Virus record (IMG/VR): IMGVR_UViG_2734482565_000012
Reading direction: 5' to 3' (one strand)
Source of the DNA: a virus
Lineage: Duplodnaviria > Heunggongvirae > Uroviricota > Caudoviricetes
Length of the DNA: 40,525 bases
Below are positions 35,140-38,973 of this stretch, piece after piece. The stretch's first letter is position 1; each line of letters opens with the position of its first letter. The position numbers and the translations under genes are program-made. The notes beneath the pieces are model-generated. The model ran no database searches, was not told the origin of the DNA, and worked only from the letters and a program-made list of their open reading frames with translations.

Positions 35140-37740
35140 ATGAGCACAAAACCACTCTTCCTGTTACGGAAAGCGAAAAAATCATCCGGTGAACCTGACG
35201 TCGTCCTGTGGGCAAGCAACGATTTTGAATCGACCTGTGCCACTCTGGACTACCTGATCGTTAAGTCAGGTAAAAAACTGAGCAGCTATTTTAAAGCTGT
35301 TGCCACGAATTTTCCTGTCGTTAATGACCTGCCCGCTGAAGGTGAGATCGATTTTACCTGGAGTGAACGCTATCAACTCAGCAAAGACTCCATGACATGG
35401 GAACTAAAACCGGGAGCAGCACCAGACAACGCTCACTATCAAGGCAATACCAACGTCAACGGCGAAGACATGACTGAGATTGAGGAGAATATGCTACTCC
35501 CAATTTCTGGCCAGGAACTGCCCATTCGTTGGCTTGCTCAACACGGCAGCGAAAAACCGGTAACGCACGTTTCACGCGACGGACTCCAGGCATTACACAT
35601 TGCTCGGGCTGAAGAACTACCGGCTGTTACTGCCCTGGCTGTTTCCCACAAAACCAGCCTGCTCGACCCGCTGGAAATTCGCGAACTCCACAAACTGGTT
35701 CGTGACACTGACAAAGTTTTCCCTAATCCTGGTAATTCAAACCTGGGACTGATAACTGCTTTTTTCGAAGCATACCTGAACGCTGACTACACCGATCGAG
35801 GACTGCTGACAAAAGAGTGGATGAAGGGTAATCGTGTTTCACACATCACTCGCACGGCTTCCGGTGCTAATGCTGGCGGCGGAAACCTCACCGATCGCGG
35901 CGAAGGTTTCGTACACGATCTGACGTCACTGGCGCGGGACGTAGCCACTGGCGTACTGGCCCGTTCAATGGATCTGGACATCTATAACCTTCATCCGGCA
36001 CACGCTAAACGCATTGAGGAAATTATCGCTGAAAATAAACCGCCCTTTTCTGTTTTCCGCGACAAATTCATCACCATGCCTGGCGGGCTGGATTATTCCC
36101 GCGCCATCGTGGTTGCGTCCGTAAAAGAAGCACCAATTGGGATCGAGGTCATCCCCGCGCACGTCACTGAATATCTGAACAAAGTACTGACTGAAACCGA
36201 TCATGCCAACCCTGATCCGGAAATCGTGGATATTGCCTGCGGTCGCTCCTCTGCCCCGATGCCGCAGCGAGTAACAGAAGAAGGAAAACAGGATGATGAA
36301 GAAAAACCGCAACCATCTGGAACAACGGCAGTTGAACAGGGAGAGGCTGAAACAATGGAACCGGACGCAACTGAACATCATCAGGACACGCAGCCGCTGG
36401 ATGCTCAGTCACAGGTAAATTCTGTTGATGCGAAATATCAGGAACTGCGGGCAGAACTCCATGAAGCCCGGAAAAACATTCCATCAAAAAATCCTGTCGA
36501 TGCCGATAAATTGCTTGCTGCATCACGTGGTGAATTTGTTGACGGAATTAGCGACCCGAACGATCCGAAATGGGTAAAGGGGATCCAGACTCGCGATTGT
36601 GTGTACCAGAACCAGCCAGAAACGGAAAAAACCAGCCCGGATATGAATCAACCTGAGCCAGTAGTGCAACAGGAACCGGAAATAGCCTGCAATGCCTGCG
36701 GCCAGACTGGCGGGGATAACTGCCCTGACTGTGGTGCGGTGATGGGCGACGCAACATACCAGGAAACATTCGATGAAGAGAGTCAGGTTGAAGCTAAGGA
36801 AAATGATCCGGAGGAAATGGAAGGCGCTGAACATCCGCACAATGAGAATGCTGGCAGCGATCCGCATCGCGATTGCAGTGATGAAACTGGCGAAGTCGCA
36901 GATCCCGTAATCGTAGAAGACATAGAGCCAGGTATTTATTACGGAATTTCGAATGAGAATTACCACGCGGGTCCCGGTGTCAGTAAGTCTCAGCTCGATG
37001 ACATTGCTGATACTCCGGCACTGTATTTGTGGCGTAAAAATGCCCCCGTGGACACCACAAAGACAAAAACGCTCGATTTAGGAACCGCTTTCCACTGCCG
37101 GGTACTTGAGCCGGAAGAATTCAGTAACCGCTTTATCGTAGCACCTGAATTTAACCGCCGGACAAACTCCGGAAAAGAAGAAGAGAAAGCGTTTCTGAGG
37201 GAATGCGCAAGCACAGGAAAAACGGTTATCACTGCCGAAGAAGGCCGGAAAATTGAACTCATGTATCAGAGCGTTATGGCTTTGCCGCTGGGGCAATGGC
37301 TTGTTGAAAGCGCCGGACACGCTGAATCATCAATTTACTGGGAAGATCCTGAAACAGCAATTTTGTGTCGGTGCCGTCCGGACAAAATTATCCCTGAATT
37401 TCACTGGATCATGGACGTGAAAACTACGGCGGATATTCAACGATTCAAAACCGCTTATTACGACTACCGCTATCACGTTCAGGATGCATTCTACAGTGAC
37501 GGTTATGAAGCACAGTTTGGAGTGCAGCCAACTTTCGTTTTTCTGGTTGCCAGCACAACTATTGAATGCGGACGTTATCCGGTTGAAATTTTCATGATGG
37601 GCGAAGAAGCAAAACTGGCAGGTCAGCTGGAATATCACCGCAATCTGCGAACCCTGGCTGACTGCCTCAATACCGATGAATGGCCAGCTATTAAGACGTT
37701 ATCACTGCCCCGCTGGGCTAAGGAATATGCAAATGACTAA
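35140..37740 (+). CDS. recE: exonuclease VIII (RecE)
   Basis: 866 aa; matches RecE of Rac as recalled, including C-terminal nuclease region ..[23 protein letters not shown]..; stop overlaps the recT start. Confidence 0.95.
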
Positions 37741-38542
37741 GCAACCACCAATCGCAAAAGCCGATCTGCAAAAAACTCAGGGAAACCGTGCACCAGCAGC
37801 AATTAAAAATAACGACGTGATTAGTTTTATTAACCAGCCATCAATGAAAGAGCAACTGGCAGCAGCTCTTCCACGCCATATGACGGCTGAACGTATGATC
37901 CGTATCGCCACCACAGAAATTCGTAAAGTTCCGGCGTTAGGAAACTGTGACACTATGAGTTTTGTCAGTGCAATCGTACAGTGTTCACAGCTCGGACTTG
38001 AGCCCGGTAGCGCCCTCGGTCATGCATATTTACTGCCTTTTGGTAATAAAAACGAAAAGAGCGGTAAAAAAAACGTTCAGCTAATCATTGGCTATCGCGG
38101 CATGATTGATCTGGCTCGCCGTTCAGGTCAAATCGCCAGCCTGTCAGCCCGTGTTGTCCGTGAAGGTGACGAGTTTAATTTCGAATTTGGCCTTGATGAA
38201 AAGTTAATACACCGCCCAGGAGAAAACGAAGATGCCCCTGTTACCCACGTCTATGCTGTCGCAAGACTGAAAGACGGAGGTACTCAGTTTGAAGTTATGA
38301 CGCGCAAACAGATTGAGCTGGTGCGCAGCCAGAGTAAAGCTGGTAATAACGGGCCGTGGGTAACTCACTGGGAAGAAATGGCAAAGAAAACGGCTATTCG
38401 TCGCCTGTTCAAATATCTGCCCGTATCAATTGAGATCCAGCGTGCAGTATCAATGGATGAAAAGGAACCACTGACAATCGATCCTGCAGATTCCTCTGTA
38501 TTAACCGGGGAATACAGTGTAATCGATAATTCAGAGGAATAA
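37733..38542 (+). CDS. recT: recombinase RecT (single-strand annealing protein)
   Basis: 269 aa from [26 protein letters not shown]..; ATG at 37733 overlaps the recE stop (ATGACTAA). Confidence 0.95.
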
Positions 38543-38597
38543 TTCAGCCTGGCGGTGTAATGCACCGCCAACTTGAAATATTTTTATGAGAAAAATT

Positions 38598-38792
38598 ATG
38601 AGATATGACAATGTTAAACCATGTCCATTTTGTGGTTGTCCATCAGTAACGGTGAAAGCCATTTCAGGATATTACCGAGCGAAGTGTAACGGATGCGAAT
38701 CCCGAACCGGTTATGGTGGAAGTGAAAAAGAAGCACTCGAACGATGAAATAAACGAACCACTGGAAATAATAATGGAGGTGTTCATGTATAA
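38598..38792 (+). pseudogene. ralR: ralR (restriction-alleviation / type I toxin) frame with in-frame TGA at codon 50
   Basis: ATG 38598: MRYDNVKPCPFCGCPSVTVKAISGYYRAKCNGCESRTGYGGSEKEALER then TGA (38745-38747); the same frame stays open 14 more codons (NKRTTGNNNGGVHV) to TAA at 38790-38792. Confidence 0.5.
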
Positions 38793-38973
38793 AATTACCG
38801 CCACTATTGAAAAGGAAGGTGGCACTCCTACTAACTGGACAAGATATTCAAAATCTAAACTAACGAAATCAGAATGCGAAAAAATGCTCTCAGGTAAAAA
38901 AGAAGCAGGCGTTTCCAGAGAGCAGAAAGTAAAACTGATAAATTTTAATTGCGAGAAACTTCAGTCCTCGTGA
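38785..38973 (+). CDS. ydaC: YdaC-like small protein
   Basis: GGAGG SD then ATG at 38785; MYKITATIEKEGGTPTNWTRYSKSKLTKSECEKMLSGKKEAGVSREQKVKLINFNCEKLQSS. Confidence 0.65.
   Translation: MYKITATIEKEGGTPTNWTRYSKSKLTKSECEKMLSGKKEAGVSREQKVKLINFNCEKLQSS

Follow-up and report, generated by a model that had tools for sequence, protein, structure and literature searches.

Results

The ralR locus and its codon-50 stop

The window, by which we mean the whole stretch of DNA analysed (positions 1-40525; 40,525 nt), is a long piece of a Rac-type prophage, whose genes include those for tape measure, capsid, terminase, lysis and replication functions as well as trkG. Its right end falls exactly on the stop codon of intR, and its left end cuts tail genes. 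The genome nearest to the window is NCTC10444 (99.9% identity over 25 kb), in which the same gene lies beside ttcA, the Rac attachment site in K-12. The features that concern us here are as follows.

37733-38542, + strand: recT, upstream of ralR in the same leftward early operon (coordinates transferred from a related locus)
38598-38747, + strand: truncated ralR (lar) open reading frame, 49 codons plus TGA, encoding the zinc-ribbon part of RalR (C9, C12, C30, C33)
38720-38735, + strand: 16-nt RalA target in ralR, AAGTGAAAAAGAAGCA, codons 41-46, unchanged from K-12
38742-38744, + strand: codon 49, CGA in the window and AGA in K-12; synonymous, marking the haplotype of the nonsense mutation
38745-38747, + strand: premature TGA at codon 50 (TGG, Trp, in K-12); changed base 38747, context UGA-A
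38748-38792, + strand: part of ralR beyond the premature stop, 14 codons (NKRTTGNNNGGVHV) and TAA, with no difference from K-12
38785-38973, + strand: rcbA/ydaC (DUF1187), 62 codons, WP_001302840.1; its start overlaps the original ralR stop
38791-38969, - strand: RalA antitoxin sRNA, 179 nt, full length (Rfam RF02694, 225.1 bits, E 5e-55, model 1-179)
38892-38907, + strand: the 16-nt repeat a second time, AGGTAAAAAAGAAGCA; RalA carries its complement, which pairs with the ralR mRNA

Translation of positions 38598-38792 on the + strand gave MRYDNVKPCPFCGCPSVTVKAISGYYRAKCNGCESRTGYGGSEKEALER, a stop, NKRTTGNNNGGVHV and a second stop, that is, 49 sense codons, TGA, 14 sense codons and TAA. This agrees with the original prediction, which had ended ralR after 49 codons and had placed the next in-frame stop, 14 open codons later, at the start of ydaC. 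The second stop is the original ralR terminator (TAA, 38790-38792), overlapping the start region of rcbA/ydaC (ATG, 38785-38787; ATGTATAA), and the part of ralR beyond the premature stop includes what remains of the invariant motif W-N-[KR]-R as well as the rcbA Shine-Dalgarno sequence, GGAGG (38775-38779). An alternative in-frame ATG at 38586, used as the start in some records, adds four residues and yields a 53-aa product; we preferred 38598, since MRY are the first residues both of the orthologs and of the family alignment.

The ralR gene of K-12 MG1655 (b1348) encodes the identical 64 amino acids except for a tryptophan at position 50, just as the original prediction had stated. Over 461 bp of aligned DNA, the window and K-12 are 99% identical, and within ralR they differ only in that AGA TGG in K-12 reads CGA TGA in the window. 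The substitution in codon 49 (AGA to CGA, base 38742) is synonymous, leaving TGG to TGA (W50*) as the sole coding change. The proposed single TGG-to-TGA change in a 64-codon gene is thus borne out, with one correction: the altered base is the third of codon 50 (38745-38747), and hence 38747 rather than 38746. Since 14 open codons after a stop are no rarity by chance, it is the 99% identity to K-12 that lends weight to the codon-50 stop, and not the open frame behind it.

Upstream of the ralR start, the T-run at 38579-38583 has one T fewer than that of K-12 (TATTTTTATG versus TATTTTTTATG); it belongs to the 5' untranslated region and leaves the reading frame unaffected.

RalA, its pairing site and rcbA are intact

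The RalA match of 225.1 bits compares with a gathering score of 170 for RF02694, and the DNA alignment showed zero differences from K-12 within the RalA coordinates. The intact antitoxin gene supports the earlier assignment of ralR to a type I toxin-antitoxin pair. We deduced the sequence of the 16-nt target from a plasmid table in PMC4041452; between the end of the target and the TGA lie 9 nt. The target and the second repeat copy match at 14 of 16 positions, 11 of them contiguous, as they do in K-12. Downstream, rcbA retains its own GGAGG 5 nt upstream of the ATG, and only 37 untranslated nucleotides separate the new stop from the rcbA start, so that little polarity would be expected. Fold prediction also placed a 9-bp GC-rich hairpin downstream of recT, at about 38550-38570.

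The rcbA gene itself has 62 codons in the window (TGA, 38971-38973), as against 69 in K-12, which has AGA there. The 62-codon form also occurs in E. ruysiae and in one MAG, both with an intact ralR, suggesting that the K-12 rcbA may be the extended version. Counted from the 5' end of RalA, the base that creates the rcbA stop is 2 nt upstream and falls in the promoter-proximal region.

A few E. coli contigs encode RalR-RcbA fusion proteins (P0012, P0015). The junction in P0012 (GGSEKEA/GVSREQ) coincides exactly with the two copies of the 16-nt repeat, which suggests that the pairing repeat is also a deletion substrate and that such deletions take away the C-terminus of the toxin together with part of ralA.

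The TGA allele is widespread in E. coli and confined to one haplotype

An exact 33-mer spanning codon 50 was used to count alleles in complete E. coli genomes. The W50* allele was present in about 311 of 5,426 genomes, roughly 19% of the ralR carriers (TGA, 311 genomes; TGG, about 1,246-1,306). The 261-bp region around the gene matched at 100% identity in at least 40 complete E. coli genomes and at 99% or more in 311, equal to the number of TGA carriers; the TGG alleles are 80-99% identical to the window over the same 261 bp. In a large protein collection, the exact 49-aa protein was found on at least 1000 contigs. The TGA carriers include O26, O111, O103, O157:H7 and O102:H6 strains and many clinical isolates.

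Combining codons 49 and 50, complete genomes held about 311 CGA-TGA, 123-124 CGA-TGG and zero AGA-TGA haplotypes. The confinement of TGA to the CGA background suggests one origin, and the data fit one recent mutation on the CGA haplotype that then spread. That O157:H7 and O26/O111/O103 strains share the allele suggests that it moved, either with the prophage or through recombination. In GTDB species-representative genomes, the six ralR loci found (E. ruysiae, two E. coli, S. flexneri and two MAGs) were all AGA-TGG, and this set gave no sign of the TGA allele outside E. coli. Other ralR lesions exist and are rare, among them a W50S variant, frameshifts and the two RalR-RcbA fusions, the latter deletions between short repeats.

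Many TGA carriers (for example, E2865 and O26/O103 strains) have another place that matches the ralR region. Another Rac-like prophage, beside yebY/copD, carries a diverged lineage of ralR with 92% protein identity, which about 102 genomes match at 95-99% identity, and some TGA-carrying strains may still possess an intact ralR paralog.

The stop removes the invariant end of the Lar domain

We scored the 49-aa product and a restored 64-aa RalR against curated profiles. With PF14354 (Lar; cutoff 28.6), the restored protein reached 53.5 bits over profile positions 2-58 of 58 (residues 5-54), and the 49-aa form reached 39 bits over positions 2-52. The corresponding scores with TIGR03655 were 55.3 and 40.3 bits (cutoff 39.6), and those with the RalR equivalog NF007260 were 166 and 126.9 bits, the latter over profile positions 1-49 of 64 (cutoff 113). 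The four-cysteine zinc ribbon (CPFCG ... CxxC; C9, C12, C30, C33) is present in the 49-aa product. The W-N-[KR]-R motif that closes the Lar domain lies at and after the TGA and is hence untranslated, the product being devoid of W50-V64.

A Lar-family profile search of 1.84 billion cluster representatives retrieved 3,968 proteins, and the 75 single-domain proteins among the best 150 matches, a diverse set, were aligned to K-12 RalR. W50, N51 and R53 were each found in 75 of 75 homologs, equal to the four zinc-binding cysteines, an invariance somewhat inflated because the 75 are top matches of a motif-containing profile, and with which the curated Pfam and TIGRFAM profiles agree. Position 52 was K or R in 63 of the 75. 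The Salmonella and Citrobacter orthologs retain R-W-N-[KR]-R.

We also considered position 49 as the normal C-terminus of the family, with K-12 RalR as an extended form. This is refuted with near certainty, since the Pfam and TIGRFAM domains reach residue 54, the orthologs keep the motif, the six GTDB species-representative loci all have TGG and none of the 75 aligned homologs has its C-terminus before RalR position 55. The original prediction had named a general ending of homologs at this position as the observation that would speak against it; all 75 run to position 55 or beyond.

Apart from the single-domain proteins, the Lar-family members P0054, P0078, P0109 and P0182 are some 220-370 aa long with 3-6 tandem Lar-domain matches, indicating that this small zinc-ribbon module is also found as multi-repeat proteins.

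In the AlphaFold2 model of RalR (mean pLDDT 78), a beta-hairpin (17-22/25-30) is followed by a helix at 43-52 (pLDDT about 87) and a disordered tail at 55-64, so that the stop is predicted to take away the last turn of RalR's only helix. A PDB sequence search with RalR returned spurious matches only, and a Foldseek search of the model against the PDB returned nothing at E <= 0.001; its best matches (all E > 0.09) were the zinc ribbons of eIF2-beta, ELOF1 and the Pol III C11 subunit. As modelled, RalR appears to be a bare zinc ribbon plus one helix that resembles no nuclease in the PDB. These searches add nothing about mechanism, and the fold does not account for the non-specific DNase activity reported for this 64-aa protein.

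Database annotation of the truncated gene

PGAP annotates the identical stretch as a 49-aa "endodeoxyribonuclease toxin RalR" (WP_001443846.1; E2865, NCTC10444) with no pseudogene flag, which is explained by the NF007260 score still exceeding its cutoff. The allele is accordingly of practical interest mostly for annotation, since a probably dead toxin may be counted as functional when toxin-antitoxin systems are surveyed in STEC and clinical E. coli. A published prophage survey gave a toxin call for records with the TGA allele and reported RalA as "not detected"; RalA is present in the window, which matches those records (ON470614/616) at about 99%. We rejected the idea that ON470614/616 are induced phages, since the source paper deals with PHASTER-predicted prophages, and these records say nothing on phage activity.

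The variant is already in RefSeq and UniRef and is an ordinary catalogued polymorphism, with nothing mechanistically new. Our literature search found no paper describing the truncated ralR allele.

Discussion

We consider it probable that W50* is a genuine heritable nonsense allele with an inactive 49-aa product, and that the gene is a young pseudogene. The gene, ralR/lar, lies in a Rac-type prophage, which in the nearest genome is integrated beside ttcA. In the proposed course of events, a single G-to-A transition on the CGA-49 haplotype turned TGG into TGA, and the mutated haplotype has since reached several percent of sequenced E. coli. Translation halts after Arg49, so that the product keeps the zinc ribbon and loses the last C-terminal helix turn with W-N-[K/R]-R. 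Experiments have shown that RalR requires residues of this motif to be toxic and to act as a DNase, and the 49-aa peptide is hence most likely non-toxic and inactive.

The published experiments bear directly on this last step. According to Guo et al. 2014 (PMC4041452), substitutions at RalR positions 14, 37, 39, 49, 51 and 52 lower toxicity, two of which, 51 and 52, lie past the stop, and purified RalR K52Q showed no DNA cleavage. Motif invariance and this mutagenesis together indicate that the 49-aa product has most likely lost its function, and ralR here is most likely a severe hypomorph at best. The intactness of RalA, the 16-nt pairing site and rcbA is accounted for by the recent date of the lesion and by the position of RalA antisense within rcbA. 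The loss of ralR would be tolerated because the early-left operon of the prophage is normally silent. Given the single haplotype, the allele frequency is explicable by one event followed by lineage or prophage spread, and with a single origin it could result from hitch-hiking; selection against the toxin, as proposed in the original prediction, may also lie behind the truncation.

Three other readings of the stop were weighed against an inactivated toxin. A sequencing or assembly error at 38747, which the original prediction had entertained, has practically no chance of being correct: it can draw on the prior plausibility of a single-base change and on nothing more, and it is refuted because about 311 complete genomes, assembled independently in many laboratories and on many sequencing platforms, have the identical base, and because at least 1000 contigs share the allele. 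That the 49-aa zinc-ribbon peptide is functional, for instance in alleviating EcoKI restriction without toxicity or in interfering with a full-length paralog, is very unlikely. The peptide retains the four cysteines and the beta-hairpin and passes the NF007260 (126.9 versus 113) and PF14354 (39 versus 28.6) cutoffs, so that residual or altered activity is conceivable, and its allele persists in many successful lineages. The missing motif, however, is as invariant as the cysteines in homologs that never end before position 55, substitutions at 51 and 52 already lower toxicity, with K52Q devoid of DNase activity (PMC4041452), and persistence is expected anyway of a neutral lesion in a silent prophage gene. 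The restriction-related activity in question is that of the Lar family, which King and Murray reportedly described in 1995 as alleviating EcoKI restriction and enhancing modification.

Somewhat less improbable, though still unlikely, is a stop read at times by Trp-tRNATrp, which, Trp being the original residue, would restore wild-type RalR in its full 64 aa at no more than a few percent of the normal level and make ralR an attenuated gene or "pseudo-pseudogene", down-tuned rather than dead. In a K-12 reporter (PMC10570021), Trp-tRNATrp competing with RF2 decodes UGA at a rate of about 2% at 37 °C and 4% at 25 °C, a 3' A next to UGA is a context favouring Trp readthrough (PMC9122581, citing Engelberg-Kulka 1981), the window reads CGA UGA AAU, and the 14 downstream codons are intact and K-12-identical. 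Because UGA-A is leaky in E. coli, some full-length wild-type RalR may still arise. Two other circumstances nevertheless account for the intact tail, namely that the allele is young and that the tail overlaps the ribosome-binding site and start of rcbA, and no recoding signal was found. The RF2 variant of K-12 terminates poorly, so that less readthrough would be expected in natural isolates, and nothing indicates that a toxin which is normally repressed would matter at 1% of its level or below. If such reading does take place, one in five E. coli with ralR would make the toxin in a stochastic manner, at about 1/100 of the dose and at a condition-dependent rate, a neat case of dose attenuation via a Trp-to-opal change.

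Programmed recoding through a SECIS-like element or a stimulatory structure was considered separately and rejected, as there is no structured element 3' of the UGA: no local hairpin of the kind expected for selenocysteine or structured recoding was predicted downstream of 38747, and the 261-nt region folded no better than shuffled sequences (z = -1.5).

Returning to the inactivated toxin, roughly 19% of ralR carriers would combine an intact RalA with a disabled toxin and thus form a small natural test case for the decay of type I toxin-antitoxin loci.

Among known systems, the closest is RalR/RalA of the K-12 Rac prophage (PMC4041452), which shares the locus and the order recE-recT-ralR-rcbA-xisR-intR, placed beside ttcA in the genome nearest to the window. 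In that system, overexpressed RalR is toxic and RalA neutralises it with a dependence on Hfq. The DNA is 99% identical, with RalA and the 16-nt pairing site unchanged, and a RalR HMM match is likewise found; unlike K-12 RalR, the toxin frame of the window stops at codon 50, so that the full-length 64-aa toxin is absent and W50-V64, including N51 and K52, is missing. The product shares with the Lar family (PF14354, TIGR03655) the CPFCG...CxxC zinc ribbon and the short helix, scoring above both cutoffs, and differs from it in that translation does not extend into the invariant W-N-[KR]-R motif with which the domain closes. The "pseudo-pseudogenes" of Salmonella (PMC9122581) resemble ralR in having an in-frame stop in an otherwise intact gene, with UGA readable as Trp, whereas the ralR allele is known here from its sequence and most of the readthrough in Salmonella concerns UAG, not UGA. 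Inactivated chromosomal type I toxins, among them the K-12 hok copies that PMC4041452 calls apparently inactive, also have a mutated toxin with a persisting locus and RNA partner; in contrast to these, the lesion in ralR is one point mutation on a young haplotype that is polymorphic in the species and not fixed.
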